From an uncultured Candidatus Saccharibacteria bacterium (GTDB lineage: Bacteria; Patescibacteriota; WWE3; 2-01-FULL-39-13), in the NCBI GenBank assembly GCA_964370865.1, contig CAYJKF010000001.1, positions 111,766-175,765 on the forward strand: 64,000 bases of DNA, given 5' to 3'. Position numbers and translations under genes: made by a program. The notes below the pieces were generated by a model, which made no database searches, was not told where the DNA came from, and was given only the letters and a program-made list of their open reading frames with translations. Below, piece by piece: positions 11,439 through 43,019 of this stretch (positions are counted from its first letter, which is position 1; each line of letters begins with the position of its first letter).

Positions 11439-11457
11439 TGTTGTAAAATAAGTTAAA

Positions 11458-12489
11458 ATGATTAGTATAAAACCTTTGATAGAAAAAAATAAAAAAATAG
11501 CCATATTAATTCTAGTTTTATTTTTGGGTGGTTTAATTTATTATCTATTTTCGAGCGGTATATTTTTAGGTCCTGGACCAGGTACAAGTGTCATTGACCT
11601 TTCTACACCAAGTATTAATGTAGCTGGAAACCAAGAAAGTAAATATAAGATAGAAAGATCTCTTTATTTCAAAGTTACGAATCCGCACGGCGGTGAAATA
11701 CTTCCAATTTATAAATATAACAAAAATGATTTAACTACTGATGAGCAGTTAATAGGAAAAATAGCCGAAGAAGTTGGACTCACCAAAAAAAAAGAAATTA
11801 ATTCAGTTGGACAAGGAACTGTCCTTGTTTTGCATTCAGAAGATAGTGCAAGGGGTATCACATTAAATAAACAAAACAACGTTCTAACTTATAGTAATAT
11901 CAGCTACGACAAAGCTATACATTTTAAAACCAACGATCAAATCGAAAAGGCTCGTAATTCAGCAGAAAGTTTTTTGAAGGAATTAAACCTCTGGAGTGAA
12001 AATTATAGTCTAATTGGCGCTCTATATAGAGATGATAAAATATCTTCTCAACAGCCAGAAACTTCAACCCCACTAAATCAGTCTACAACTGTAGAATTTT
12101 TATTTGAAAATAAAATTGATGGCTATGAAGTATCTACTCTACCCTATTCGGTTCAAGGTGATTATATTAATATCGCGGTATCCGCTGATAATTACACCAT
12201 CACAAAAATTCAATTAGTAATTTCAGGTGAAATTTCAAGTGAACAAGGCAAGGTAAAGATTATTTCATTAAATGACCTTATTAGAGATATAGATAATGGA
12301 AACCTAAAATTAATAGATACGTTAGCAGAACCTGATGCGGTATTTGACAGAATCGTTGTGTCGGAAGCTACTATCTTTTATTATGCACTTGATGGTCAAA
12401 TAGTTCCTGCATATAGAATTACAGGAACAGCAACTGACCAACGAGGGCAAGCATCGCCTGTTTATTTTATCGCCAATGCTTTCAAATAA
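11458..12489 (+). CDS. bitopic membrane protein (N-terminal TM, extracytoplasmic domain); VirB8/PrgL-like candidate
   Basis: 343 aa with a single N-terminal helix IAILILVLFLGGLIYYLF, then a soluble domain. The VirB8-like call is based on size, topology and neighbourhood only. Confidence 0.35.
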   Translation: MISIKPLIEKNKKIAILILVLFLGGLIYYLFSSGIFLGPGPGTSVIDLSTPSINVAGNQESKYKIERSLYFKVTNPHGGEILPIYKYNKNDLTTDEQLIGKIAEEVGLTKKKEINSVGQGTVLVLHSEDSARGITLNKQNNVLTYSNISYDKAIHFKTNDQIEKARNSAESFLKELNLWSENYSLIGALYRDDKISSQQPETSTPLNQSTTVEFLFENKIDGYEVSTLPYSVQGDYINIAVSADNYTITKIQLVISGEISSEQGKVKIISLNDLIRDIDNGNLKLIDTLAEPDAVFDRIVVSEATIFYYALDGQIVPAYRITGTATDQRGQASPVYFIANAFK

Positions 12490-15400
12490 AATAGTTTATA
12501 AAATAATATTGGTTGCATTAATCCCTGTTGTGGTAATGGCAATTTTTGCAAATAGAAAAACCGAAAAAGTGTGCGCACAAGTTGAGGGCTTTGACCCAGC
12601 AAGCGCATTCGCAGAATGTATAGGACCGGAACTTGCAGCATACATGCTAGCAATATTAGATGCACAAGCTGCTGGATTAATTCCTTCTAATATCAAACTA
12701 CTATCTCCAGCCTTTAATATGACTTCGAGTACTCTTAATCCTATTGTTGGTGCTGTAAACGAAGCAGCTCCAGGAATCTTTAATCATCCAAATTTAGTTG
12801 GAATTGCAGGTAATATATATGACACTAGTGGTGGAAATTCTATGGGAGATTACTGGTCGAACCAAAATATTAACGGGCTATTTGGAAATATCCCAATTTA
12901 TATTACTGAAACAGGAAATACTGAAAATAGCGGACTATCAAACAGACAAACTGCAGATAATATTGCCGCATTACTGCAAAGCAATCCTAACATTCAAAAT
13001 ATTTCGCTATTTGTTCCAACCGGAAGTAATCCCGCGTATGGTCATCATTCGTGGTCTCAAGACGAAATAAATTATCTTTGCAGCATAACTAACGGGTGCG
13101 AAAAAATTGGTATTAATTATGGAACGTATTTTGGTGGAAATGATTATCACGATGTTAATAACTACAATATGAATTCAGGACTGCAAATCGCCGACATGGG
13201 AAGTATTCCAAGTATTATAGAGGCAGTAAACAATTCTAACGGGGATGTAATTGTAAGAATTGGAGTTGGATCAAGTTCAGGAGGATTTGATACTCCACAA
13301 GCTTATATAAAGTTTCTTAAAGAATTGGGTGACAGTTTACCCCCTGGAGCTAGCGTATTTGCTATTGCTGGTCCAAACGAACCGGATTTAGAGGGCTGGT
13401 TAAGTCCAGAATGCATGAACCTCTTACCTATTAATCCAGCTGACATGTTATGTGGAGGACGAATTGATGAAAAACCCGTGGGTTATCGAGGTGAGGTCGT
13501 TGGACATAATGGTGAAATTCCATGGAGTATCAATTCTAACTTACATCAACAGAAAGATCTTATAGGTGGAACGGTTGAAGGTCAATTAGCATCAACCCTC
13601 CAAGCAGAATTTATAATAAGAGTCCCGCCAAATACTTTTAGACACAATGATTTTAGAGTCGTATCCGATCAAATGGTAGGTTCATTAGATCCAGATGATC
13701 CAAACAATCTCTATTTCGAAGATCGGTTGAGAGACGAAGATGGATTTATAAGTCCACTGAAAGCAAATATGCCTATTTTCAACTCAGCCTTACCTGGAGT
13801 AAAAATTCCGAGTAGTTATTCAGTTGGCATAAATGAGACCTTTCAGTTTGCAGAGTCAAATGAGACACCTGAAGCATATTTAGAGAGAATTTTCAAAAAA
13901 ACTCCTGAACCTGGAGATGGACGTAAACCAGAATTCGGATGGCTCACAGAAATGCCAGCAATGGTTTTTCGAGCATGTATTCAACGGTCTGCCTGCAACC
14001 TTGGTGTAGAAGAATGTTTGAGGGCAGACGGAAGCGGTGAGCTATGCGATGGGAGCGATGATGCTGAGGATTGTAGACCATTTGGACGAACTTTTAATTT
14101 GACTGGCAGGATTGGCCATCGAGAACCTACTGAACTTCACTCGATTTCAAGAAGTTTTGAATTGCAAAAGAGACAACTTGTAGATAGACCAGGCGAACCA
14201 ACTAGTTTCGGAGCTGTTGTAACACAAGAAGATTTGTCTAGATCAACCTATGTCTTTAAAGATCCTGATTTAAATGAGTTAGCGGATGGTATGAAATATA
14301 TTCAAGAGATAAGTCAAAATAGAAATACAAACTATAAAACCTCAAGTGGAAAAGAAGTAACAGTTGCCAACACTAATAATGGTTCTTTAATCAAACCTGC
14401 AGTGGCAAATGCTCAAGGTGATCCAATGGCTCAACCACAAGGGTCACTCGGTGTTGTTGTTATCGAGTTAGGAGGCAATCAGGTTCAAATAGACTATGAA
14501 ACATGTGTTTGGCATCAACTTGGATCTGCTTGTGCAATTCGAGATGTTAGTACAACAATTAATGGACAAGGAACTTTTAACTATATACCAGTTACTCAAG
14601 CAAATATACCAAGGTGTCTAAAACCAAGCTGGGGAAATGCTCCAGTTATTACAGCAGATCTTGCACCAGGAACTTGTACAACACTAAGTGTTCACACAAG
14701 AGGTGGTAGAGTTGGTCCAGAAGGTTGTAGCGATACCTATCAAGACTCCTGCGAAATTTGTAGAGCAAATGATGGAACGATAACTCAAACCTGTGGAATA
14801 ATTCCTCCACCACCACCCGTTGATTGTAGTCAATGTGCAAGTTGGGCACCCAGTTGGCTATGCGCACCAATTATCGCAGACCCCTTACCCGAAGAAACCG
14901 AGTGTGCAGATGGAGCATGTACCTCAAGCGGAAAAATAAGCATAGAAAAAGAGATTCCATGGCAGGATGATGATGATGACCCCGATGATATAAATGATTG
15001 GATTATAAACTGGCTCGATCGACTTAGAGAAGGGGATTTTACCTGGCTAAGTGGACTCTTGGCTGGACTTTTAGAGACAGAAAGAACTGGCGTTAGATGC
15101 GATATCGACTATTCTCTTCCTTCAGAGTCCCCGGGAGGTATTCGTTTCCCAATAGGAATTGAATGTTGGTTTGGATCGCGAGATTATTTAGTATATGCAT
15201 ATCCAATAACATATATTGGCGACTTTGGTGAGAGAACGGTCGATATGTCTATAAACAATGCTATGTTCAGATTAAGTAACAAAACTGACCAATATTTTTG
15301 GCCACAAAGTACAAAAGCACCAGTAACCTTAAAGCTATCGTTAAGAGATCCAACAATTGATGACGAAACCGTAAGATTTGAGGTCCCAAATGGATCCGAA

Positions 15401-16027
15401 CGAGGCTTTGAAATTGGCGCACAAAATACGTTTTATTTAGGACTTAATGACTCTGGTGAAAGAACCATGTTTGTTGAGTATTACTACTTTATGCAACCAC
15501 AGACGAGTGGACAGTGTTTAAAACAGCGTTTCTTATCTCAACCGATTCCTTTGCCTGGCGGAGGAACCGGAGTTCCACTAAGTCATAATACGCTTTGCGG
15601 TTCTCAGGATTTTTGGACTTCTGGCATTACTAGTGGCGACACTACTTCAGCAGTGGATCAAAGAATGATGGCAGCCGTAGAACAAATAGAACAAAATCTA
15701 CTTGCTACTACTGATAGCCAAGATAAAGTTGCCGCTGAAATAAATTTAGATCAAGATATAGTTCCTCAAATTCGAAAATTATATGAACAAGATAAGCATG
15801 CAGATTATGCTGGTAGCAAAATTATGTCGAACATGACATTATCAGAAGTTGAAAATCTTCAAAATCAATTTCTTTCTGAATTTGAAATCATCCTAAATAA
15901 ATACTTCATGTCGAGTGGTAAAGGAGTTTTTAAGGATATAAACGATACACCCGAAAGCATGGAGAAAGAACTAGATGCCTTAGTTAGAAAATACGATAAT
16001 CGGGTTAGCGCTATCGTGAATAACTAA
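12476..16027 (+). CDS. giant (1183 aa) secreted Cys-rich surface protein
   Basis: N-terminal TM/signal (IILVALIPVVVMAIF). A Cys-dense segment CSDTYQDSCEICRANDG...CGIIPPPPPVDCSQCASWAPSWLCAP, an acidic DDDDDPDD run, and no catalytic motif I can place. The start overlaps the previous gene by 14 nt. Confidence 0.5.
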   Translation: MLSNKIVYKIILVALIPVVVMAIFANRKTEKVCAQVEGFDPASAFAECIGPELAAYMLAILDAQAAGLIPSNIKLLSPAFNMTSSTLNPIVGAVNEAAPGIFNHPNLVGIAGNIYDTSGGNSMGDYWSNQNINGLFGNIPIYITETGNTENSGLSNRQTADNIAALLQSNPNIQNISLFVPTGSNPAYGHHSWSQDEINYLCSITNGCEKIGINYGTYFGGNDYHDVNNYNMNSGLQIADMGSIPSIIEAVNNSNGDVIVRIGVGSSSGGFDTPQAYIKFLKELGDSLPPGASVFAIAGPNEPDLEGWLSPECMNLLPINPADMLCGGRIDEKPVGYRGEVVGHNGEIPWSINSNLHQQKDLIGGTVEGQLASTLQAEFIIRVPPNTFRHNDFRVVSDQMVGSLDPDDPNNLYFEDRLRDEDGFISPLKANMPIFNSALPGVKIPSSYSVGINETFQFAESNETPEAYLERIFKKTPEPGDGRKPEFGWLTEMPAMVFRACIQRSACNLGVEECLRADGSGELCDGSDDAEDCRPFGRTFNLTGRIGHREPTELHSISRSFELQKRQLVDRPGEPTSFGAVVTQEDLSRSTYVFKDPDLNELADGMKYIQEISQNRNTNYKTSSGKEVTVANTNNGSLIKPAVANAQGDPMAQPQGSLGVVVIELGGNQVQIDYETCVWHQLGSACAIRDVSTTINGQGTFNYIPVTQANIPRCLKPSWGNAPVITADLAPGTCTTLSVHTRGGRVGPEGCSDTYQDSCEICRANDGTITQTCGIIPPPPPVDCSQCASWAPSWLCAPIIADPLPEETECADGACTSSGKISIEKEIPWQDDDDDPDDINDWIINWLDRLREGDFTWLSGLLAGLLETERTGVRCDIDYSLPSESPGGIRFPIGIECWFGSRDYLVYAYPITYIGDFGERTVDMSINNAMFRLSNKTDQYFWPQSTKAPVTLKLSLRDPTIDDETVRFEVPNGSERGFEIGAQNTFYLGLNDSGERTMFVEYYYFMQPQTSGQCLKQRFLSQPIPLPGGGTGVPLSHNTLCGSQDFWTSGITSGDTTSAVDQRMMAAVEQIEQNLLATTDSQDKVAAEINLDQDIVPQIRKLYEQDKHADYAGSKIMSNMTLSEVENLQNQFLSEFEIILNKYFMSSGKGVFKDINDTPESMEKELDALVRKYDNRVSAIVNN

Positions 16028-23681: not shown

Positions 23682-24986
23682 CTAAAATCCCGTTCTAAAC
23701 AAACTTCTTATTTTTTCTTTTTCTGCGCTAAAGATTTTGTATAAACTGTTGTCGTTCTCGCCGATAGCTATAGCCAAATTATTAAAAACATCTATGAATT
23801 CTTTATTACCACTATTGGTGGTAAAGTAGCTATGCGAAGAAGAGTCGGCATATTCAATAAACCCTTGTAAATATTCATTACTTTTCGTAATAGAATCTAG
23901 CGATTTTACACTAGGAATTTCACCAAAATTTGCGTATTTGGAGTATTCACTAAACATCTTTGTTTGTTGTTCAGGCATACTTAACCAATTTAAAAAATCC
24001 CATGCCAACTTTTGTTCATCCTTGGAGAGATCAGTCGAAACCGTTTCAACGAACGAAGAAGCGACTGTTAACCTGGTTGTTCCTCCTTCACTAAGTGGTA
24101 ACTGCGGCACTGAAATGACTTCTAAATTCATAGATGGATTAAGGTTCAAAATAGTTTTTAAATCACCCGTTTTCACGAAAACCATTCCAACTTTACCTTC
24201 AGCGAATGCACCTATAGAATCTGGCAAACTGTCACTCCAGACTCTATCGATTTTTGAAAAATTCATATAATAGCCAATAACCTCAACGGCCGTTTCTGAG
24301 TCAATACTATCTGGAATCTTAATATTACTCTGCGCTAACATCAAGGAAATAATATCAGAATGGTTTGCAACATTATTTGTGGAACCAATTGCAGCCCCCG
24401 CTACAATGATATTGTTCCGACTGTCTCTTTTAGTAATCCTTATTGCTGCATTTCGAAAATCTTCCCATGTAACTGGAACTCCAGCACCCGATTGCTGAAA
24501 CAAGTCCTTGTTATAAGCAAGTGCCAATCCGTCATACATTATAGGAATACATTTGACCTCTTCATTAATAATACATTGTGTCCGGTAGGCTCTATAAAAG
24601 GCCGCCTCGAAATCTTTCTTTGAAACGGATGTATTTATGGCCATCTCTGATGATAGAAATGGTGACCAGGTTGCATGGATTCGAAATATATCTGGTCCCT
24701 CTCCTGAGCGTAATTTTTCTGCCAATAATTTTTTATACTCAGTTAAATCGTCATAACTCTTTCTTTCATACTTTATCAATACATTAGGATTGCTTTTCTC
24801 GTATTCAGAAATTAATGGCTGAATTACCTCTACTGGTAAGTTTATACCCCAGTATGTGAATTCAGTTCTAGAGGCGACTGTTGGACGATTATTTCCTGGG
24901 AGTGAGACATTAGTTACTAGATATAAAACAGCCAAGAGGGAAATAAAAACGATCGCCAGTGTAAATAATAACTTAGTAGTATTCAT
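23682..24986 (-). CDS. extracellular solute-binding protein (ABC transporter family-1-like), orphan
   Basis: 434 aa. N-terminal TM/signal, then TEFTYWGINLPVEVIQPLISEYEKSNPNVLIKYE, typical of sugar-type SBP N-lobes. No permease or ATPase lies adjacent. Confidence 0.45.
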   Translation of the reverse strand: MNTTKLLFTLAIVFISLLAVLYLVTNVSLPGNNRPTVASRTEFTYWGINLPVEVIQPLISEYEKSNPNVLIKYERKSYDDLTEYKKLLAEKLRSGEGPDIFRIHATWSPFLSSEMAINTSVSKKDFEAAFYRAYRTQCIINEEVKCIPIMYDGLALAYNKDLFQQSGAGVPVTWEDFRNAAIRITKRDSRNNIIVAGAAIGSTNNVANHSDIISLMLAQSNIKIPDSIDSETAVEVIGYYMNFSKIDRVWSDSLPDSIGAFAEGKVGMVFVKTGDLKTILNLNPSMNLEVISVPQLPLSEGGTTRLTVASSFVETVSTDLSKDEQKLAWDFLNWLSMPEQQTKMFSEYSKYANFGEIPSVKSLDSITKSNEYLQGFIEYADSSSHSYFTTNSGNKEFIDVFNNLAIAIGENDNSLYKIFSAEKEKIRSLFRTGF

Positions 24987-32829: not shown

Positions 32830-34074
32830 ATGGAGAATCCTGCCAATGAGCAATTAAACACCCAAGAAGTCAACAATTCAGAATTCGCACAGAAAGAGCC
32901 ACTTGTTTATAAAAAAACTATAAAAAAATATGCAATGATCGCGGTGAGTGGCTTATTAGGACTGGCCATAATAATTACTGCTGTCGTTATCTATATGCGT
33001 TTTATGGATAGATTTAATGTGACGGAACCAACTCCACCGGTGACACCAACACCAACTCCTGAAATACCAAAAGCAGCATCGCCATTAATCGCCTATATTA
33101 AAAATGATAAATCAATTTGGATTGTAAACACTGATGGAACTGATAAAAAAGTATTGCTCGAACTGCCTGGATCATCGGATCAGTTCTTCTCGGATCTGAC
33201 TTGGAAAAGCAAAGGGTTTCTATCTTATTCACTCTGTGACACAAATCCAAATTGTACTGTGGAGACTTATAATTTAGAGACAAAGTCTTCTGTAACAGAA
33301 ATTAATAATTCAGAAGAAGGATTTGTGGAGTCATTAACTTGGGCACCTGAAAATAAATTCATCGGGTATTTTCAATACAAAGACCAAGGATCTCAGAACC
33401 AAACGGTGGAACTAAGACTTAAGACTGGAACAACCAATACTGTTTTATCAACACATAAAACAGAAATAAAAGATATCGAACAAGTCTCAAAAGTAACTTT
33501 CTCAGAAGACGAGGATCATATAGCCTTTGGTTTTGTAGAATTAGTTGCTTCAACAAGAGGCCGGACTATTACATATACAGCAAAACCTAAAATCTTAGTA
33601 TATAGAGTAAGCGGAGTATTGTTGGATACAATCAGCGATGCCAAAGACCCGATGTTCATAGACGAAAAAACCATCGCATATCAAAAGGGAGCACAGCTCA
33701 TACATAGGGAAATTGGGACATTATCAGAAACAGCTATTACTCCAATAACAGGATTCAACTTAGATGTTTCTCCTGACAAAAGTAAGTATGCATATTGGAG
33801 CCCTACAGGTGGATTCTCAGATGCTTTATTAATTATTTTTGATGGAAACCTAAACCTTCAAAGGAATATATTAAGAGGCGTCCTATTTCCACAGTGGATA
33901 AGCAACTCTACCGTTGTTGGGATAAAAGCTGATAACTGTTTAGGTTCAAAATGTGAATTATTCGATTATCAAACCATTAGTTTAGCTACCGTTAACATCG
34001 AAACAAAACAAGCAAATCCAATTGATCAAGGTCGCACTATTAAAGATGTTGAAGTAAATTACTATGCCAATTAA
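32830..34074 (+). CDS. membrane-anchored hypothetical protein with Pro/Thr linker and beta-rich extracytoplasmic domain
   Basis: 414 aa. TM helix IAVSGLLGLAIIITAVVIYM, linker TEPTPPVTPTPTPEIP, then a repetitive beta-strand-like domain. The stop overlaps the next gene's start by 11 nt. Confidence 0.4.
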   Translation: MENPANEQLNTQEVNNSEFAQKEPLVYKKTIKKYAMIAVSGLLGLAIIITAVVIYMRFMDRFNVTEPTPPVTPTPTPEIPKAASPLIAYIKNDKSIWIVNTDGTDKKVLLELPGSSDQFFSDLTWKSKGFLSYSLCDTNPNCTVETYNLETKSSVTEINNSEEGFVESLTWAPENKFIGYFQYKDQGSQNQTVELRLKTGTTNTVLSTHKTEIKDIEQVSKVTFSEDEDHIAFGFVELVASTRGRTITYTAKPKILVYRVSGVLLDTISDAKDPMFIDEKTIAYQKGAQLIHREIGTLSETAITPITGFNLDVSPDKSKYAYWSPTGGFSDALLIIFDGNLNLQRNILRGVLFPQWISNSTVVGIKADNCLGSKCELFDYQTISLATVNIETKQANPIDQGRTIKDVEVNYYAN

Positions 34075-35746
34075 AGAAGAATCACTAGAGGCCAATGCAG
34101 GTCAAAAACACCCAGTCCCACAGAACGTCATGGATGTTGAGTTTAAAGTTGTAGGAGATTTAACATTAAGGCAAGTCATGTATATTGCATTTGGGGGAGT
34201 TACAGCATACTTTTTATATAAAACAGGTTTACCAAATTTCTGGAAATATATACTAATGGGAATAAGTTTGATTACCGGAACGACAGTTGCTTTTGTTCCA
34301 ATTCAGGAACGCGGGCTTGATAAATGGTTAGTTATATTTATTAATTCAATCGTGAATCCGACCCAAATGATATGGAGAAAGTCTGTTAATTATGCCTCTG
34401 TATCCTTTTTATCAAACTACGACCAACTTCAAATAATAAAAAACGAAATGGTCTCACTTACACCTATTAAGAATCGTAACCGACTAGAAGAATATTTGGG
34501 TATGATTGAAAACACTCAAGATTCTAATTATGACCAATTCGAGATAACCCGAATGGGAGAAATCCAAAATAACCTAAGCGCTAAATCAAACGTTAGTGTC
34601 ACAACTCGCTTTGAAGAAACTCCAACTCTAGAACCTGTAATTCCGACTATTGATAAAGCCAGAATTCCAGAGAGAACACATGAAATAATTGACGTAGAAA
34701 AGAATCCAAAAATAGCTTCTCTTCCACACCAAAATACCATTGCTGAAGACGAGCTGGAGAGTAAGAAGGAGTTATTAAATGCCCTAGCAAACATCGAGGG
34801 AGGGTATAATAAAGATGGGCCAATCGAAATCTTTACTGAACAAAAGGTTAACAGACCTATTCTAAATCTACCTGAGCTTGGATCCAATAACTTCTCCTTG
34901 AAGGGTGAAATTAAATTAAAGAATATACGTAAATTCCCAACGGTAATCGTTGCCGAAGATATAAAAGGCATAAAAGAGCACGAAGAATCTCTAGAAAAAA
35001 AAGTATCAGAATTATTAATACTCGCAAAAAAAGCTAGAGCACAGTATCAAATTAAAAGTGGAAAAGAACCTAGTTTTAATACACCTATTGTTGAGGACGT
35101 TAAAGGCAGGGTTACGCAGTTAAGAGAGGAAAAGAAAAAACTTAAATTGGAAATTGATAAAAGCACAGAACAAGTAAATCTTATAGATAATACAAACAAA
35201 AACAGAGAAACACTTCAAAACCAAATTCAGATGTTAACACATAAAAATGAGGAACTTGAAACCATACTAAAGAAAATTAACTTAGAACTTGATGAACTGA
35301 AAGGAACACCAGAATACAAGGCTTCCAAGCAAAAAGAACCTGTAGAAAAGGTTGAAACTGAAGAAACTAAAACTGAAGAAGTGTTTACACCTGAAAAACC
35401 AATTACCCCAAAACCAATCGACAACCAGGTCGATGAGTTTAAATTCAAAGCAAGGCCATCCGTCAATAGTTCGTATCAAAACACTAATATTATCGAAGGA
35501 CTTGTAAAAGACATCTCTGGTAAACTAGTAGAAGGAGCAGCGGTTATTATTAAAGACTCACAGGGAAATGTTATTAGAGCCCTAAAAACTAACCAAGTCG
35601 GACAGTTCAGAACGCAGACTTCTGTACCAAATGGCAAATATACAATTGAAGTACTAAAAGGTGGCATGAGTTTTGATATTATAATAGTTGAAGCCGTTGG
35701 AAGGCATCTGAATCCAATTTACTTAGTAGCCAAGGAGTTAAATTAA
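34064..35746 (+). CDS. PrgI/VirB3-like two-helix membrane module fused to long coiled-coil domain
   Basis: The N-terminus DLTLRQVMYIAFGGVTAYFLY plus a second helix ILMGISLITGTTVAFVPI resembles the PrgI family of Gram-positive T4SS. It is followed by ~350 aa of K/E/L heptad-rich sequence. It lies directly upstream of the VirB4-like ORFs. Confidence 0.45.
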   Translation: MPIKEESLEANAGQKHPVPQNVMDVEFKVVGDLTLRQVMYIAFGGVTAYFLYKTGLPNFWKYILMGISLITGTTVAFVPIQERGLDKWLVIFINSIVNPTQMIWRKSVNYASVSFLSNYDQLQIIKNEMVSLTPIKNRNRLEEYLGMIENTQDSNYDQFEITRMGEIQNNLSAKSNVSVTTRFEETPTLEPVIPTIDKARIPERTHEIIDVEKNPKIASLPHQNTIAEDELESKKELLNALANIEGGYNKDGPIEIFTEQKVNRPILNLPELGSNNFSLKGEIKLKNIRKFPTVIVAEDIKGIKEHEESLEKKVSELLILAKKARAQYQIKSGKEPSFNTPIVEDVKGRVTQLREEKKKLKLEIDKSTEQVNLIDNTNKNRETLQNQIQMLTHKNEELETILKKINLELDELKGTPEYKASKQKEPVEKVETEETKTEEVFTPEKPITPKPIDNQVDEFKFKARPSVNSSYQNTNIIEGLVKDISGKLVEGAAVIIKDSQGNVIRALKTNQVGQFRTQTSVPNGKYTIEVLKGGMSFDIIIVEAVGRHLNPIYLVAKELN

Positions 35747-36442
35747 ATGAATAACAATATCAAAACTACGACACAAGGTCACCTTGACATAGCAGATATA
35801 AAAAATAATATTGTAATCTTAACAAACGGAGGAGCCTGCGCAATTATAGAAACCAATGCAATTAATTTTGATTTATTATCCCTACCCGAACAAGATGCAG
35901 CGATTTCATCCTTTAGTGCGTTGCTCAATTCCCTAACTTTTCCAATGCAGATTACAATTAGATCAAAAAAAATGGACATAAGCGAGTATTTAGAAAGGAT
36001 TAAAGAAGTTGAAGATAAACAAACAAACCCCAAGATCAGAGGACAAATAATGGCATACAGAACGTTCATCAAAGACGAACTTGTTACAAAAGAGGAAGTT
36101 TTAGATAAAAATTTTTACGTCACTATTCCATACAAAACAGTTTCTCTTGGTTCAATTTCACCTATGACTTGGATAAATGACTTAATGAATTTAGATACAA
36201 AAAACAAAAGTAAAATAAATGTCGAATCCATATTACAAGAAGCTACTCCAGATCTAGCCCCGAAAATTTCGTTTATACTTAAAGAATTCTCGAGGATGGG
36301 AATAAAAGCAAGACAATTAGGAACTGGCGAATTGATTAAACTTTTCTATGATTTATATAATAGTGAGAGTGCTCAGAGCCAGAAAATGAGGACCAATATG
36401 GCAGACTTCTCGTCTGTATTAGTTGAGCCAAAATTAGGATAA
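35747..36442 (+). CDS. VirB4/PrgJ-like conjugation ATPase, N-terminal domain (separate ORF)
   Basis: 231 aa. HLDIADIKNNIVILTNGGACAIIETNAINFDLLSLPEQDAAISSFSALLNSLTFPMQI matches the N-terminal domain pattern of Gram-positive VirB4 homologs. It ends at TAA 36440-36442, 4 nt before the next ORF, which is in a different frame. Confidence 0.55.
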   Translation: MNNNIKTTTQGHLDIADIKNNIVILTNGGACAIIETNAINFDLLSLPEQDAAISSFSALLNSLTFPMQITIRSKKMDISEYLERIKEVEDKQTNPKIRGQIMAYRTFIKDELVTKEEVLDKNFYVTIPYKTVSLGSISPMTWINDLMNLDTKNKSKINVESILQEATPDLAPKISFILKEFSRMGIKARQLGTGELIKLFYDLYNSESAQSQKMRTNMADFSSVLVEPKLG

Positions 36443-36446
36443 AAAT

Positions 36447-38561
36447 ATGTTAGGAATATTTGGGAAGAAAAAACAAGAGAAACCAAAAACTAATATTCCA
36501 AGCGATATGGAACAACCCGAAAATGTATCGAAAGCACTCTTAAAGGGAATTCCAGGGGTAAAAGATATAATCGCACCAAGCGCAATTGAAGTTGATTATA
36601 ATCATATAAAAATTGGAGATAAATATTTCAGAACCCTATTCATTTCTGCATACCCAAGATTCTTAGGCGCAAACTGGCTAGAACCAATAATAAACTTCAA
36701 TCATACAATGAGCATTTCAATGTTTTATTATCCAGTAAATGCGAGAAATGTTTTAGATGATATGAGAAGAAAAATCGCAGAAATGGAAGCCTCCATAAAC
36801 ATTGCGCGCGACAAAGGTAAAGTTGTAGATCCTGGAATTCAAGTGGCTCTGGAAGATGCGAAATCGCTACAGGAACAACTAGTAAAAGGGATTGAAAGAT
36901 TTTTTCACTATTCGTTCTATGTAACGTTTTCAGCCGATTCCTTAGAGGAACTAAAGGACGTATCTTATCAAGTTGAATCAACATTAGGGTCAATGGGACT
37001 GATGTCGAAAAAAGCTTCCCTTGATATGGAAAATGCTTTTAAAAGCACCCTTCCTCTTTGTTTAGATAAACTAAAAATAATTCGAAACATGGATACTACT
37101 TCCGTGGCTACAACCTTTCCGTTTACATCCAGCGATTTAACGGCGAATGAAGGAATTTTATATGGTGTAAATAAACATAACAGATCATTGGTTATTTTTG
37201 ATCGATTTAGTCTTGAGAACTACAACACTGTAGTCTTTGCCAAATCAGGTTCTGGTAAATCATATCTAGTGAAACTTGAAGCACTGAGATATTTGCTATT
37301 TGGCGTGGATATTATCGCCATAGATCCCGAAACTGAATACAGAAGATTATGCGAAGCTGTTGGGGGAGACTATATAGACTTCAATATAAAAAGTCAATCT
37401 AAGATAAATCCTTTTGAATTACCAGTTGTCACTGATACAGAAGATCAGTTAAGTCTTAAAATTTTAAGCCTTCATGCTCTTTTTAAAATTATGTTAGGAG
37501 CACTCTCCCCTGCAGAATCATCTATTCTGGATAGAGCCTTGGTAGATGTATATAGACTAAAAGGCATTACACAGGATGCTGCCACACAGAAAAATGAGCC
37601 TCCTCTAATGGAAGATTTATATAAAGTTCTACTTGCCATGGATGAACCAGAGTCTAAAGCTATTTCCGAGAGACTCGAAAGATTTATAAAGGGCTCCTTA
37701 GCAGGTGTATTTGATCAACGTTCAAATATCAATTTAGATAATAACTTCACTGCATTTTCGATTCGAAACCTTGAGGATGTATTAAGGCCAATCGCAATGT
37801 TTATGATTTTGGATTTTATTTGGACAAAGGTTAAATATGATCTCAAAAAACGTATATTAATTTTGGATGAGGCCTGGACGTTAATGCAATATCCTGATTC
37901 GGCTGCATATGTTTATTCATTAGCGAAAAGAGCCCGAAAATATTTCTTAGGATTAACAACTATTACTCAAGATGTTGCCGACTTCTTAGGTTCAGATTAT
38001 GGAAAAGCTGTTTTAAATAACTCCTCAATTCAAATACTACTAAAACAACATCCAGCCGCAATCGATAAAGTTGCTGAAGTCTTTTACTTGTCAGCAGGAG
38101 AAAGAAATTTCTTGCTTTCAGCAGGTGTTGGCGAGGGATTATTCTTTGCTGGAACCAACCACGTGGCAATTCAATTCAAGGCTTCGAAACAAGAACATTT
38201 GTTAATTACTACAAATCCTCAGGAAGTTGCGAAAATCGATGCTGATAAAAGCTTTAATGATTCACTAAAAACCGTAGATGAAAAAAACCAAACTAATGCT
38301 CCTCAGCAAGTGGGGATAGCTAATAAATATCAAATTATTGAACAGATTCCGCAACAAACACCAGTAGAAACCAATAGTGAAGTTATTGATCCTTTCGATA
38401 AAATTAGTCCCGTCTCAACTTCAGATGAGACTAAACCTATAAGCAATGCCGGCATTACTCCAATGCCAAATCCCTACTCTGGAATAACTGGAGATGACAG
38501 TGAAAATTATAAATCTGGAACAATTATTCTAAACGAAAGAAATTCAAGACCTACGGCGTAA
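36447..38561 (+). CDS. VirB4/PrgJ-like conjugation ATPase, ATPase body (Walker A/B) with C-terminal low-complexity tail
   Basis: IKIGDKYFRTLFISAYPRFLGANWLEPIINF (VirB4 mid-region), Walker A FAKSGSGKSY, Walker B RILILDEAW, then a ~100-aa Pro/Thr/Asn-rich tail. AGGA ribosome-binding site 7 nt upstream of the ATG. Confidence 0.7.
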   Translation: MLGIFGKKKQEKPKTNIPSDMEQPENVSKALLKGIPGVKDIIAPSAIEVDYNHIKIGDKYFRTLFISAYPRFLGANWLEPIINFNHTMSISMFYYPVNARNVLDDMRRKIAEMEASINIARDKGKVVDPGIQVALEDAKSLQEQLVKGIERFFHYSFYVTFSADSLEELKDVSYQVESTLGSMGLMSKKASLDMENAFKSTLPLCLDKLKIIRNMDTTSVATTFPFTSSDLTANEGILYGVNKHNRSLVIFDRFSLENYNTVVFAKSGSGKSYLVKLEALRYLLFGVDIIAIDPETEYRRLCEAVGGDYIDFNIKSQSKINPFELPVVTDTEDQLSLKILSLHALFKIMLGALSPAESSILDRALVDVYRLKGITQDAATQKNEPPLMEDLYKVLLAMDEPESKAISERLERFIKGSLAGVFDQRSNINLDNNFTAFSIRNLEDVLRPIAMFMILDFIWTKVKYDLKKRILILDEAWTLMQYPDSAAYVYSLAKRARKYFLGLTTITQDVADFLGSDYGKAVLNNSSIQILLKQHPAAIDKVAEVFYLSAGERNFLLSAGVGEGLFFAGTNHVAIQFKASKQEHLLITTNPQEVAKIDADKSFNDSLKTVDEKNQTNAPQQVGIANKYQIIEQIPQQTPVETNSEVIDPFDKISPVSTSDETKPISNAGITPMPNPYSGITGDDSENYKSGTIILNERNSRPTA

Positions 38562-39042
38562 TATTAATATTTTCTCCTACTTTTAGTCCTAACTTCTGAA
38601 CTTGACCCGCGTTTAATTCTAAAACGAATCTAGCAGGACTTGTTGGTACAATGCTATGACATAAAGCATCTACTGTAGATTCACACGGTTTTGCATTTTC
38701 TTTTATAAAAACAACTTTTCCCTCCTCATTAATCCAAATAATATCAAGTGCTATTAGGGTGTTTTTCATCCAAAATGGATATATTGAGGTGGACTCAAAT
38801 ATAAAAAGCATTCCTGCCTTTTCATCCATTTCTTTAACATGCATTAGCCCTCTTTGCCGTTTATCGTCATCATCAACAATCCATATATTATAGTTTTGTT
38901 CATTGATGGATATAGATTTAGTTGGAAGGCCGGATAAATAGGTATCGTCGGGTTTAATTTTATTTATTTTAAAATAGGTTGTGGATAAATAGAAAACACA
39001 CGCCACAACAACGAGTGTACATGCAATATAAATTACGTTCAT
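38551..39042 (-). CDS. DUF192-family protein (COG1430-like), membrane-anchored
   Basis: 163 aa. N-terminal TM, then IWIVDDDDKRQRGLMHV...GMLFIFE...YPFWMKNTLIALDIIWINEEGKVVFI, the DUF192 signature. Confidence 0.55.
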   Translation of the reverse strand: MNVIYIACTLVVVACVFYLSTTYFKINKIKPDDTYLSGLPTKSISINEQNYNIWIVDDDDKRQRGLMHVKEMDEKAGMLFIFESTSIYPFWMKNTLIALDIIWINEEGKVVFIKENAKPCESTVDALCHSIVPTSPARFVLELNAGQVQKLGLKVGENINITP

Positions 39043-39047
39043 TATTA

Positions 39048-39407
39048 CTATAATACCTGATTTGAAACTTCTTGGGATTCGATTGAAACAATTCCTTTTA
39101 GTGCTTTGAGGGCTTTTTCAATTTGTTCGTATTTGAGGTTGGTATTTCCTGTAAGTAAATCTACGTATATAAAGGAATGCTCTGGCCAAGTATGCAAAAC
39201 CAAACTAGACTCCGATAAAATGTATACTAAAGTTTCTCCTTGAATGGGATAAGCATAGTAGCATTTTTCAACAACACTTAATTGCGCTTCTTTTGAGATA
39301 GTATCGGCTAATAAATATAAGGCTTCCTTTGAATATTTATATTCCGAAGAAGTAGTGATTTTTATGACCGAATGATCAATTTTGATGTGTGTAGATGCTT
39401 TTTCCAT
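39048..39407 (-). CDS. speH: S-adenosylmethionine decarboxylase proenzyme (SpeH-type, pyruvoyl)
   Basis: ESSLVLHTWPEHSFIYVDLLTGN matches the class-1 AdoMetDC core (ES|S processing site, HTWPE). The start is set at MEKASTHIKID. The ORF-track start at 39503 would overlap the upstream gene by 128 nt. Confidence 0.65.
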   Translation of the reverse strand: MEKASTHIKIDHSVIKITTSSEYKYSKEALYLLADTISKEAQLSVVEKCYYAYPIQGETLVYILSESSLVLHTWPEHSFIYVDLLTGNTNLKYEQIEKALKALKGIVSIESQEVSNQVL

Positions 39408-40359
39408 TATATTGTCCTTTGACGAGTGGTTCTGTAGACGGAGTAACGTCGCAAACGTACAAATTACTTGAAGATCCAATACTTTCGGCTCCTTTATATA
39501 CATTAAACCTGTCGAGTGAATATCTTATCATAAGCCCACTGTCGGTTACAACCTTCTGGATTTTGAGGAATTTCTCCCTAGAAAGCTCACTATTACCGTA
39601 ACAGAAATAAATTCTTGAGGCTTTGTTATGAAAATCTAGTGCCTGAATTGCCCGGGAAAGAAATATCTTTATTCCCTCTTCTGTATAAGGTGGATCGGTA
39701 AAAACCACATCGAACTGACTTTTCAAATCTGTAGGAAAATTATCTTTAACGTCTCCTTTTATGATTTTAATTGGTAAGTTGAAACCAGCGGCATGTGTTT
39801 TTATAGAATTAATAACAAGATCATCTATTTCAAACACGCTAACTTGCTCGGCTTCATTCAATATACTTACAGCAACCGAAGTATAATCATCATCCCCAAG
39901 AAATAAAACTCGTTTACCCGACAAATCAAAATTCTTACTCATGTATAAAGCTCGTTTAGTAATAGTTTCGGAAGTTGCGGCAAATTGGTCGAACTCTCTT
40001 TTATCATGGACTTGAGACTTTTCCCTAATATCCTTTATTGTGTTATAGAGCTCTGTACTTTCAACATTTTCAATCTTTACGGACTGTCGGTTATCGGATA
40101 ATGTGGCTAAACTTTGCGCGACTTTTTTACCGTATTCGCTCAGCATAGTTTGAGGAACGATCTTCTCGAACATAGGACTTAATTCTTTTTTGATTAAAGT
40201 TAGACTTTGCAAAGATACGCCAGTTGATTGGATTACTTCTTTATTAACTAGACTACCTTGTTTAAAAAGCAGCACGAATAACTCCACAAGCTGGGAAAAA
40301 GGAATCCCAGATTTTTTAGAAAATCCTAATAAATCGGCGTTTACAAGTGGTTTTGCCAT
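39376..40359 (-). CDS. DUF43/BpsA-like aminopropyltransferase (polyamine biosynthesis)
   Basis: 327 aa. The FLGDDDYTSVAV (GDDD motif) and FTDPPYT segments resemble the DUF43 branched-polyamine synthase family. Its 3' end overlaps speH by ~32 nt. Confidence 0.5.
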   Translation of the reverse strand: MAKPLVNADLLGFSKKSGIPFSQLVELFVLLFKQGSLVNKEVIQSTGVSLQSLTLIKKELSPMFEKIVPQTMLSEYGKKVAQSLATLSDNRQSVKIENVESTELYNTIKDIREKSQVHDKREFDQFAATSETITKRALYMSKNFDLSGKRVLFLGDDDYTSVAVSILNEAEQVSVFEIDDLVINSIKTHAAGFNLPIKIIKGDVKDNFPTDLKSQFDVVFTDPPYTEEGIKIFLSRAIQALDFHNKASRIYFCYGNSELSREKFLKIQKVVTDSGLMIRYSLDRFNVYKGAESIGSSSNLYVCDVTPSTEPLVKGQYNGKSIYTHQN

Positions 40360-40426
40360 TAGGCTATTATAACGGTGCTAAGCCTGTTTGTCATATCGTT
40401 TGGATAATACGCTATAATTAGTAGGC

Positions 40427-41038: not shown

Positions 41039-42106
41039 TTAAAAACTTATAGCGTCTACAATTCTTCCCCAAAAGCTTTGAAGGCTTTCTAGCTCTTGCC
41101 CAGTTTCGGCATCATAAGTGATTAAGGTATCTATTCTCGTCTCGAAAAGACCTAATACGCTTTGTGCTTTTTCAGCAGTCAATTCATATGCGATTTTTCC
41201 GTCTTTTTCAACGATTTCAACGCTTGAGACCTCGATCGAATCATCCGACTCTGACACTTTGCTTAATATTGCGTCTGGTAAATATTGGAGAGATTTTTCC
41301 CCACTATCTGTTAAAAGCAATATATCTCCAGTCGCGTCATCTACAGTTAATGGCAATCTAACTCTAACTTTTTTGCCCCTGTGCTCCAATTCATATGTCT
41401 CATCATCTTCACTTCTAATTAATACATCGTCATCCTCAGGTTCTGATTCATCTTCTGTTTCGTCCTCTAACTCATCTTCTAGCTCATCATTATCACTCGT
41501 TCTGCCAATTACCCTAACATAATTATGATTCTCATCATATTTAACTTTCGTAATACTCTGGTCCTCGTTTTTAATCATGAGTCTAAATTCTTCTCCATCC
41601 TTTGATTTGTACTTAATTTCGGATACTTTACCACCATTCTCTGAAAACACTTTGGCTTGATACTCTTGTTCCGAGTTACCGTTTTCGTCTTTTGCTTTAT
41701 ACTCTTCGATAACTTTACCGTTTACTCCATAGGTTTTAGTCTCGATTTCCACTTTTCCGTTATCTTCAACCTTTTTCTTTGTAACAGTGCGGGTTCCATC
41801 TTGGTTTACTTTAGTAGTTCGAGTCTCTTTTTGCTCGTCATCATCTCTTTCATCTTCATCATTGTCATCATCTTCATCGTCATCATCTTCATCCCTACCA
41901 TTACGCTCACCTTCGTTTTCATCATCCTCATCTTCGTCATCGTCTTCCTCATCTTCCTCAGACTCATCCTCGTCACCAAGGACGTAGCCGAAAAAAGTAA
42001 AAGCCAAGGCTTTTGAGGGAAACATTGACCTGAATAAAATTGCCGGACTTAAAATAAGAGCAATTGAAATTACTAGGTAAAACACGAGATCTTTAAATTT
42101 CATCAT
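41039..42106 (-). CDS. secreted hyper-acidic (Asp/Glu-repeat) protein
   Basis: 355 aa. N-terminal signal/TM, then ~70 residues of nearly pure D/E (DEDESEEDEEDDDEDEDDENEGE...DDDDEDDDNDEDERDDDEQ), a beta-rich middle, and a second acidic block. Confidence 0.45.
   Translation of the reverse strand: MMKFKDLVFYLVISIALILSPAILFRSMFPSKALAFTFFGYVLGDEDESEEDEEDDDEDEDDENEGERNGRDEDDDDEDDDNDEDERDDDEQKETRTTKVNQDGTRTVTKKKVEDNGKVEIETKTYGVNGKVIEEYKAKDENGNSEQEYQAKVFSENGGKVSEIKYKSKDGEEFRLMIKNEDQSITKVKYDENHNYVRVIGRTSDNDELEDELEDETEDESEPEDDDVLIRSEDDETYELEHRGKKVRVRLPLTVDDATGDILLLTDSGEKSLQYLPDAILSKVSESDDSIEVSSVEIVEKDGKIAYELTAEKAQSVLGLFETRIDTLITYDAETGQELESLQSFWGRIVDAISF
41790..41975. repeat. GAT/GAA/GAC codon-repeat low-complexity DNA (encodes D/E tract)
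   Basis: Imperfect trinucleotide repeats (gatgatgaagatgacgaagat...). They produce spurious Ser/Ile-rich antisense ORFs (41657..42016, 41787..41987). Confidence 0.5.
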
Positions 42107-42233: not shown

Positions 42234-43019
42234 ATGGAAACCGATGATTGGAACATCAAGGTAGATCGAATTAAGAAAAAAATAATTGAGGCAGGAAATA
42301 TCGGATTACAACATTTTAGAAACCATCCAATAAACGCAATTGAGAAAACTACTTTCTATGAAATTGTCACTGAACAAGATATAGAAATGGAAGACATTAT
42401 AAAAAAAGAAATCTTAAAGAATTTTCCAAGTGCATTTATATTAGCCGAAGAATCTCCGACCTAAGTCGAAGGAAATTTTTGGACAGTCGATCCCCTAGAT
42501 GGCACGAGCTATTACCAAAGAGGATTATCAGACTGGTCTGTTAATGTGGCTTATATAAAAAACAAAGACGTCGTTTTAGCCATAACATACTGCCCAGTTA
42601 CTAAAGAGTTATTTTATTCTGAAAAAGGAAAAGGTGCTTATCTTAACGGAAAAAGAATTCATGTGTCTGATACTACTGAAATGAAAAAAGGATGCTTCTT
42701 CTTTGGATATAATTACCTTCGAAAGTTTAATAATTCTAAATCAATTAAATTTAGGTCTGGATTTCGTACCATCTGGAGTACAGGGTCAACTGCATTAGCA
42801 TTAGCAAACTTGGCAGCTGGAAGAGTTGATGTCGGAATTCAAATCAACCAATCTTTTTGGGATATAACTGGAATGCTTCATGTTACAGAAGCCGGAGGTC
42901 GCTTTACGAATTGGAAAAATGGGAAAAAATTCGAATACTCCGCTTCGCAGATAAACAATTTCTGTGCGACAAATGGAAAGCTCCATCCCTTAGTCATGGA
43001 TTCACTCGCGGAAAAATAA
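42234..43019 (+). pseudogene. inositol-monophosphatase-family (SuhB/CysQ-like) gene interrupted by one in-frame TAA
   Basis: ORFs 42234..42464 and 42546..43019 are in the same frame. Together they read ...ILAEESPT*VEGNFWTVDPLDGTSYY...SFWDITGMLHVTEAGG, with the IMPase motifs (EE metal site, WxVDPLDGT, WD..G...EAGG) on both sides of the TAA at 42462-42464. No other stop intervenes. Confidence 0.6.

Follow-up and report, generated by a model that had tools for sequence, protein, structure and literature searches.

We analyzed a 64,000-nt window of contig CAYJKF010000001.1 (the window, hereafter, is this whole stretch of DNA) from a mesophilic freshwater or groundwater bacterium of the Candidate Phyla Radiation (CPR; Patescibacteria) and found two overlapping genes, one bpsA-like and one speH/speD-like, whose products are functionally coupled. 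This coupling is the best-supported statement of our analysis. The pair probably constitutes a translationally coupled two-gene aminopropyl-transfer module of Patescibacteria, in which a homologue of S-adenosylmethionine (SAM) decarboxylase (AdoMetDC) would work with a member of the BpsA family. The pair itself is real and widespread, and the decarboxylase homologue of this organism carries an unusual, lineage-specific active-site loss. An earlier note on the same DNA had read the locus as a module for long-chain or branched polyamines; the family assignment and the tie to a decarboxylase stood, and the specific polyamine product did not. The setting is that of river-water and groundwater Patescibacteria, with a 93%-identical locus in a river-water metagenome-assembled genome (MAG) named ‘Patescibacteria group bacterium’. 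The GC content is ~35%. The locus comprises the following features:

39376..40359, reverse strand: bpsA-like gene; 327 aa, with an N-terminal helical (winged-helix-like) domain and the PF01861 Rossmann catalytic domain.
39048..39407, reverse strand: speH/speD-like gene; 119 aa, beginning MEKAS; homologue of class-1b pyruvoyl AdoMetDC without the catalytic Cys.
39376..39420, reverse strand: translational-coupling junction, with a Shine–Dalgarno-like motif, the speH-like ATG and the bpsA-like stop; overlap of 32 nt.
39415..39420, reverse strand: Shine–Dalgarno-like AAAGGA, within Lys-Gly codons of the bpsA-like tail and 7 nt upstream of the speH-like ATG.
39405..39407, reverse strand: speH-like ATG, the start that gives the 32-nt overlap.
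39376..39378, reverse strand: bpsA-like stop codon TGA, read from the sequence.

The longest open reading frame (ORF) for the speH-like gene spans 39048..39503 on the reverse strand and would encode 151 aa; the ATG at 39407, giving 119 aa, is the start used by gene callers and in all close homologues, and with this start the 32-nt overlap described in the earlier note was recovered. Compared with the 93%-identical MAG locus, both genes are under purifying selection (dN/dS of 0.071 for the bpsA-like and 0.063 for the speH-like gene). Together with hundreds of homologues, these low ratios identify both as real genes rather than chance ORFs.

The arrangement is conserved far beyond the window. 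A metagenome scan returned 80 loci and at least 518 confirmed matches; collapsing the loci at 90% identity left 63 groups, 53 of them with enough flank, and in 39 of these 53 an AdoMetDC homologue lies directly downstream on the same strand. The junction is similarly constrained: the ATG of the speH frame stands 29 nt before the bpsA-like end in 43/55 loci and 23–32 nt before it in 53/55, and the called genes overlap by 26–32 nt in loci L001, L004, L006, L091 and L093. AAAGGA or AAGGAG usually precedes this ATG and encodes the Lys-Gly of a conserved IKG in the BpsA-like tail. Among 1.84 billion representatives we also found single-chain fusions of the BpsA_C and AdoMet_dc domains, namely P0151/P0278 (419 aa; locus L094:8001-9260), P0158 (404 aa), P0253 (439 aa) and the divergent P0251, three of which have the junction IYTFE-...FP(Y/F)VDH in common. 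One fusion is located on a 212-kb NCBI contig (GCA_964387275.1), where precomputed Pfam matches cover both domains. Conserved overlap, synteny and these Rosetta-stone fusions jointly establish the functional coupling of the BpsA-like protein and the AdoMetDC homologue, and the pair is a Patescibacteria-wide module characteristic of Microgenomates-type CPR bacteria. Two exceptions to the synteny show truncated speH-like remnants downstream of intact bpsA-like genes (L048:5947-6132 and L074:5872-6072); the remnant in L074 is followed by a 175-aa ORF, perhaps an inserted element.

Assignment of the 327-aa protein to the DUF43/BpsA family, as the earlier note had proposed from its GDDD motif, was borne out by several comparisons. 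Its Pfam match to BpsA_C/PF01861 reached 154.8 bits (E = 3e-45; cutoff, 27) while covering only profile positions 4–189 of 243. A phmmer search of the PDB retrieved BpsA from Thermococcus kodakarensis (Tk; 5xnc, 3.5e-19), a Pyrococcus homologue (2qm3) and BpsA from Thermus thermophilus (Tt), with the GDDD of the 327-aa protein in register with the BpsA matches. For its AlphaFold2 model (pLDDT 90.7), the top nine Foldseek matches in the PDB were BpsA-family structures (E = 6e-21 to 9e-17), comprising eight BpsA chains and 2qm3, the unnamed homologue from Pyrococcus furiosus (Pf); the tenth-ranked match was METTL5 (1e-10). Among the matches listed were 120 homologues of 312–343 aa, with source names, where given, of Woese-, Davies- or Chisholmbacteria or of the Patescibacteria group. 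The 327-aa protein, thus, belongs to a Patescibacteria-specific clade of the BpsA family. Two motifs are central to what follows:

39886..39897, reverse strand: GDDD motif, G155–D158, counterpart of Tk-BpsA G157–D160 by translation and alignment.
39685..39696, reverse strand: DPPY motif IV, D222–Y225 by translation, with D222 corresponding to Tk-BpsA D225.

For residue-level comparison, Tk, Pf and Tt BpsA sequences were rebuilt from a full-length alignment and aligned with 29 CPR clade members. The four GDDD residues are kept in 29/29, 29/29, 28/29 and 29/29 CPR sequences, respectively. In Tk-BpsA, this motif positions the aminopropyl amine of decarboxylated SAM (dcSAM) (review PMC12979288); because GDDD replaces the loop that binds the SAM carboxylate, dcSAM is likely the metabolite shared by the two proteins. 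The conserved set, in Tk numbering, consists of F/Y-D-Q, T131, GDDD, D206, D225-P-P, E259 (D or E) and Y290. FDQ, GDDD, D203, D222-P-P, E258 and Y288 are kept in 27–29 of the 29 clade members, D222, E258 and Y288 aligning with Tk-BpsA D225, E259 and Y290, while the counterpart of Y316 is uncertain owing to a deletion in the C-terminal region. Of 86 clade positions conserved at ≥90%, the 327-aa protein retains 72, the other changes being conservative, and it is orthodox within its own clade.

The 119-aa protein matched AdoMet_dc/PF02675 with 49.6 bits (E = 5.5e-13; Pfam cutoff, 25) and scored 40.7 bits against the NCBIfam equivalog TIGR03330, below the cutoff of 75.65. Sequence matches in the PDB were 2iii (3e-7) and 1tlu (8.6e-7). 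Its AlphaFold2 model (pLDDT 90.1) was closest in Foldseek to 1vr7, 1tlu and 2iii (TM 0.70–0.72; for 1vr7, E = 4.6e-8 and TM 0.71), and the next matches after these bacterial AdoMetDC structures were the N-terminal domain of human spermine synthase, 3c6k and 3c6m. A word-indexed search with this protein gave three relatives only, and an exhaustive HMMER search was used instead. Its active-site region contains two features of interest:

39180..39212, reverse strand: processing and catalytic core E66-S67/S68...H72-T-W-P-E76, from translation and Thermotoga maritima (Tm) alignments.
39147..39149, reverse strand: Gly87, codon GGA, where Tm AdoMetDC has its catalytic Cys (Cys83).

The pyruvoyl group is predicted to form from S67 (Tm S63), and H72 corresponds to Tm H68; Thr59, P75, E76 and Asp83 are also retained, including the equivalents of Tm Pro71, Glu72 and Asp79. 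The Pro of HTWPE marks bona fide AdoMetDC as opposed to the arginine-decarboxylase form SpeDA (PMC10407285), and P75 is present in the 119-aa protein. The motif of the ornithine-decarboxylase form SpeDC, Q..ETS...GHF...Y.D.FSC, taken from two ornithine-decarboxylase domains in the optically read text of Fig. S5 (PMC10407285), is not matched: the 119-aa protein has YILSESSLVLHTWPE, and the sole coincidence is the Tyr before Asp (Y81). The earlier note’s reading of this protein as a pyruvoyl AdoMetDC, thus, stands as far as the PF02675 match, the ES/S processing site and HTWPE go; an intact enzyme is not supported in this lineage, and the replacement of the catalytic Cys by Gly87 had been missed.

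These data also bear on a reading that treats the 327-aa protein as an ordinary SAM-dependent N-methyltransferase (N6-adenine, RsmD or PrmC type) and the small protein as an unrelated neofunctionalized arginine or ornithine decarboxylase. Like RsmD (m2G966), METTL5 (m6A) and PrmC, with their (D/N)PP(Y/F) motif IV, the 327-aa protein combines a Rossmann core with DPPY; it has weak matches to Cons_hypoth95/RsmD, N6-adenineMlase and PrmC, and CPR bacteria are known to have ornithine and arginine decarboxylases derived from SpeD (PMC10407285). The scores, however, are far lower than those to BpsA, with 154.8 bits for BpsA_C and at most 32 bits for any methyltransferase family. The RsmD-like Cons_hypoth95 match (32 bits) is confined to residues 169–234, N6-adenineMlase reaches 22.1 bits against a cutoff of 23.2, and the NCBIfam models for RsmD and PrmC give 19 bits (cutoff, 117) and 17 bits (cutoff, 199). 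Alignment to an N6-adenine methyltransferase, which the earlier note had named as the outcome that would overturn its family assignment, was, therefore, not what we found. In addition, GDDD occupies the place of the GxGxG glycine loop that binds the SAM carboxylate, the conserved overlap and the fusions link the protein to a SAM decarboxylase homologue, and this partner has the Pro of HTWPE and no ETS..GHF. We consider the methyltransferase reading highly improbable.

Within the BpsA family, the 327-aa protein departs from the thermophile enzymes in ways common to its clade. The proteins from Tk, Pf, Tt and locus L008, the latter a canonical-type Desulfobacterota gene, end in (E/D)(L/I)Y(D/N/E)D(E/Q)ESSTT. 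The acidic tail ELYDDEESSTT gives way to IYT(N/D)N in all clade sequences that we compared; the 327-aa protein ends ...KGQYNGKSIYTHQN, the clade consensus ends ...KGxYDKPIYTNN and the longer clade tail reads ...GAESIGSxSSLF..TPKTKPLIKGxYDKPIYTNN. The acidic C-terminal tail of BpsA is the aminopropyl carrier in a ping-pong mechanism, and the same region governs product specificity (PMC12979288). Its loss makes direct transfer (SN2, SpeE-like) likelier than a ping-pong reaction via an enzyme ester. The fourth residue of motif IV, Glu in Tk (E228), Tt, Pf and Desulfobacterota BpsA, is Tyr in 29/29 clade members, giving DPPY. An NWGY...KP segment of roughly 20–30 residues is deleted in all clade sequences compared and the CxxCxG(R/K) motif of the N-terminal domain is absent from the clade. 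Bona fide BpsA has ~350 aa versus 327 aa here, short of the full-length architecture, and identity to BpsA structures in structural alignments is ~20–23%, with ~22% for Tk-BpsA.

A genuine BpsA (EC 2.5.1.128), with N4-bis(aminopropyl)spermidine or some other branched or long polyamine as its product, would agree with the PF01861 match, GDDD and the equivalents of D225, E259 and Y290. The 93%-identical orthologue MDQ5981939.1 carries the automatic NCBI name ‘N4-bis(aminopropyl)spermidine synthase’, and the adjoining AdoMetDC homologue could supply dcSAM. Against such an enzyme speak the exchanged carrier tail, the E228-to-Tyr change, the absence of NWGY...KP and CxxC, the Pfam match ending at profile position 189 of 243 and the low sequence identity in the structural alignment. 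The window also shows no spermidine source (speE), and the host is a mesophile while BpsA has been reported only from thermophiles (PMC12979288). We, therefore, give a genuine BpsA little chance. The 327-aa protein is a BpsA-family member that lacks defining features of the BpsA enzyme and is not an orthologue of thermophile BpsA, and the NCBI name is probably an over-annotation arising from over-specific transfer. The product is probably not the branched polyamine of the database name; this departs from the branched or long polyamine product of the earlier note, with the preQ0 context of relatives, described below, as a further reason.

The missing Cys sets the decarboxylase homologue of this lineage apart. 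At the Cys83 position, 96% of 46 other CPR partner proteins and 145/150 library representatives have Cys; relatives with 93%, 88% and 44% identity have G, G and S, respectively. A sequencing error was rejected, given that GGA is two changes from a Cys codon, that the loss is common to the relatives and that an identical 119-aa protein is present on 29 contigs. The shared loss rather indicates an ancient event, and pseudogene decay was rejected on the basis of the dN/dS of 0.063. The window clade also differs at Tm P51 and H64, which are Ile and Ser in the 119-aa protein, and at a near-invariant His that precedes the DL motif and is Tyr81 here. Either the Cys-less enzyme continues to produce dcSAM, with Tyr81 or water as an alternative proton donor, or it is drifting toward a non-catalytic partner. 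Being under selection without its Cys, it offers a natural test of the indispensability of Cys83 in class-1b AdoMetDC.

The second of these options, a non-catalytic or differently catalytic SpeH-like partner that stabilizes or regulates the aminopropyltransferase, has precedents in the trypanosomatid prozyme and in human spermine synthase, whose N-terminal domain is AdoMetDC-like. The changes at Cys83, P51, H64 and the near-invariant His, in a gene nonetheless under purifying selection, would fit such a role, as would the ranking of the spermine synthase domain (3c6k, E = 7e-5) as the best structural match of the model after AdoMetDC. The fusions show that both proteins can act as one polypeptide, and Cys83 was lost independently in other BpsA-partnered copies, to Tyr in L026 and L028 (SpeH-like L026:3599-4006), to Ser in P0174 (L095) and to Gly in P0255. 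A purely structural role, however, needs none of Ser67, Thr59, His72, Pro75-Glu76 and Asp83, all of which are kept, and no second AdoMetDC gene is visible in the window as a source of dcSAM. Faster evolution of the speH-like than of the bpsA-like gene was not seen in this lineage, the ratio of local-alignment identities being 0.94, as in other pairs. We take a non-catalytic partner seriously while thinking it the less likely course. Among related proteins, the decarboxylase gene L095:8988-9332 (P0174) is inverted and convergent with the bpsA-like gene, P0223 (357 aa) continues from its AdoMetDC domain into a multi-pass membrane region at the C terminus, and the fused decarboxylase domains have His64 changed to Asn in P0151, P0158 and P0253 and to Ser in P0251, with Cys83 retained in all four.

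For the aminopropyl-transfer module that we favor, the motifs suggest the following sequence of events. The SpeH-like proenzyme would cleave itself between Glu66 and Ser67, creating an N-terminal pyruvoyl group, and the resulting enzyme would decarboxylate SAM to dcSAM; in the Cys-less form, Tyr81, in place of the near-invariant His, may act as the proton donor. The BpsA-family enzyme would then bind dcSAM, with Asp157 and Asp158 of GDDD pairing with the aminopropyl amine and disfavoring the SAM carboxylate. The aminopropyl group would pass to an amine acceptor activated by Asp222 (DPPY), Glu258 and Tyr288, presumably by direct SpeE-type SN2 transfer rather than by a ping-pong route. The most economical guess for the acceptor is a scavenged diamine or polyamine, in which case the pair may be the aminopropyltransferase of the cell, replacing SpeE. 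We infer the use of dcSAM, the direct mechanism, the acceptor class and any residual activity of the Cys-less decarboxylase from motifs.

Several observations weigh against this reading. In roughly one clade member in four, no decarboxylase gene adjoins the bpsA-like gene. With Cys83 lost, the supply of dcSAM in this organism is uncertain, and Tm P51, H64 and position 77, all altered here, are 98–100% conserved in the 46 other CPR partners. Lastly, the invariant DPPY and the frequent preQ0 context of related loci point to a planar or nucleobase amine, not an aliphatic polyamine.

This context emerged from clustered neighbor ORFs. The commonest neighbors beyond the decarboxylase were GTP cyclohydrolase I (FolE), QueD, QueE, QueC, a NodU/TobZ-type carbamoyltransferase, a family 2 glycosyltransferase (GT2) and YhhQ. 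In 17/40 distinct groups, FolE is encoded on the same strand no more than 700 nt downstream, and some que or yhhQ gene is present in 21/40; loci with FolE or que genes are scattered across the whole clade tree, a crude neighbor-joining one. In L091:10001-17546 and L093:10001-16882, the order is BpsA_C, AdoMet_dc, FolE, QueD, QueE, QueC, (peptidase), carbamoyltransferase and GT2, with the que-cluster genes overlapping or nearly abutting. A preQ0-gene context in ~40% of related loci suggests that the acceptor may not be a polyamine. Similar preQ0-cluster surroundings were seen in L009, L023, L027, L032, L043, L056, L057, L061, L065, L081, L084 and others, and after the preQ0 genes there often come the carbamoyltransferase and GT2 and sometimes the preQ0/preQ1 transporter YhhQ. 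Two further neighbors were assessed and set aside: the OTCase-like protein encoded in L001 is YgeW rather than a putrescine carbamoyltransferase, and the RrnaAD gene that ends que-type clusters, considered as an Erm-type resistance gene, had KsgA/RsmA as its best match, below the cutoff, and is probably a housekeeping gene.

The BpsA-like enzyme could, in keeping with these neighbors, aminopropylate a non-polyamine, with an amino-7-deazaguanine (preQ1-like) base, a glycoside of a 7-deazapurine or a nucleic acid that contains such a base as candidates; the pair would then be the front end of a 7-deazaguanine pathway and would have parted from the que genes in the window lineage. Besides the frequency and wide scatter of the FolE, que and yhhQ neighbors and the full clusters, this reading draws on DPPY, which is motif IV of amino-methyltransferases acting on exocyclic nucleobase amines, on the RsmD-like secondary Pfam match and on METTL5 as the next structural neighbor. 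It is weakened by the absence of que genes from the 64-kb window and from the window-clade loci L004 and L007, by a speH–folE gap of 66–88 nt while the que genes abut one another and by the compactness of CPR genomes, which makes adjacency weaker evidence than usual. Our literature search linking BpsA, DUF43 or AdoMetDC with CPR or deazaguanine found nothing relevant, nor did it turn up work on aminopropylated deazaguanine, of which we know no example. We regard a non-polyamine acceptor as unlikely, though well short of negligible. A bolder form of this reading holds that the clade lost the carrier tail, gained a nucleobase-type DPPY pocket and aminopropylates an amine derived from 7-deazaguanine, such as a preQ1-like base or glycoside that is either free or part of a nucleic acid, the window lineage being derived and outside the que cluster, with a decarboxylase working without its Cys; we think this scenario a good deal less probable than not, and somewhat less probable than a non-polyamine acceptor in general.

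Among known systems, the nearest counterpart is the combination of BpsA and SpeD in thermophiles. The 327-aa protein resembles BpsA of T. kodakarensis (TK1691; 5XNC, 5XNF and 5XNH) and T. thermophilus (6J27 and 6J28) in PF01861 and the two-domain fold, and it shares with them FDQ, GDDD, the Asp of DPP, E259, Y290 and a C-terminal (I/L)-Tyr. It differs in lacking the acidic carrier cluster and SSTT end, NWGY...KP and CxxC, in having DPPY for DPPE and in its mesophilic CPR host, and, unlike the canonical-type gene in L008, it is tightly coupled or fused to AdoMetDC. The 119-aa protein shares with class-1b AdoMetDC (T. maritima 1TLU and 1VR7; Aquifex aeolicus 2III) the fold, the ES processing site, His68, Pro71, Glu72 and Asp79, and differs in the changes of Cys83 to Gly, His64 to Ser, Pro51 to Ile and His to Tyr81. 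As in speD–speE operons and the SpeDA and SpeDC systems, a small pyruvoyl decarboxylase is encoded beside a partner polyamine enzyme; in contrast to these, the partner belongs to the BpsA family rather than being SpeE, HSS or SpeY, and the motif is HTWPE, not that of the ornithine decarboxylase. In human spermine synthase (3C6K), an AdoMetDC-fold module is physically joined to an aminopropyltransferase, as in the CPR fusions, but there it is N-terminal, non-processing and without catalytic residues, on a SpeE-type catalytic domain, whereas the CPR module, either C-terminal or separate, retains the pyruvoyl Ser and has a BpsA-type partner. Wu et al., in 2008, reportedly found the N-terminal domain of spermine synthase to be needed for dimerization.

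According to a 2026 review, BpsA orthologues and branched polyamines are found in thermophiles only (PMC12979288). This view contrasts with the large clade seen here of Patescibacteria from groundwater and fresh water, mesophiles with a BpsA-derived enzyme hard-wired to a SAM decarboxylase. CPR bacteria carry SpeD homologues without SpeE, and the study of SpeD neofunctionalization that reported this makes no mention of BpsA partners (Li et al. 2023, PMC10407285). The module is probably important to CPR bacteria, as organisms of minimal metabolism have retained, coupled and sometimes fused a SAM-consuming pair. Were it the sole aminopropyltransferase, it would represent a non-SpeE route to spermidine-like polyamines; were the acceptor a deazaguanine, it would represent new chemistry and a previously unknown class of aminopropylated deazapurines.

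Across the called genes of the window (~1–64000), no family match to Spermine_synth (speE), SpeA, SpeB or ornithine decarboxylase was detected, in agreement with the earlier note as regards speE. The single solute-binding protein in the window (23682..24986) was rejected as a PotD-type protein, its best PDB relatives being sugar and maltose binders. Immediately flanking the pair are the following features:

38551..39042, reverse strand: DUF192 gene (Pfam E = 3.4e-31), with an N-terminal membrane-anchor- or signal-like segment; 5-nt gap after the speH-like gene.
40366..40394, reverse strand: promoter-like site ATGACA-17-TATAAT, 11/12 matches; a consensus match only.

The DUF192 gene, which the earlier note had correctly placed directly downstream, is probably cotranscribed with the pair, as it is co-directional and only 5 nt away. 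It adjoins the pair only in the window clade and in its sister L004, where it lies on the opposite strand, and is absent from all 80 other loci. We, therefore, rejected it as a third component of the module and regard it as a lineage-specific neighbor. The number of promoter-like sites in the region was not above shuffle expectation. The −10 box of this one stops 6 nt short of the bpsA-like ATG, and the transcript may thus lack a leader; the site shares a 67-nt divergent intergenic region with a fasciclin gene.

Farther out, positions 32830–38561 on the forward strand contain PrgI-like, TraC-like and VirB4-like (AAA_10/TraG P-loop) genes of a Patescibacteria-type type IV secretion system. This cluster is arranged tail to tail with the DUF192 gene with an 11-nt overlap, and the same DUF192/VirB4 arrangement occurs in L004. 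On the other side of the pair, positions 41039–42106 on the reverse strand encode a 355-aa protein that has a hydrophobic segment at its N terminus and very long runs of Asp/Glu, and that gave no Pfam match. An inositol-monophosphatase-family gene at 42234–43019 on the forward strand is seemingly split into 76-aa and 157-aa ORFs 81 nt apart; the split is also present in an independent ENA assembly (L006) and may reflect a pseudogene, a frameshift or an intervening sequence. At 7497–16027 on the forward strand, a 1,313-aa protein matching Peptidase_M23 is followed by proteins of 343 aa and 1,183 aa without Pfam matches.

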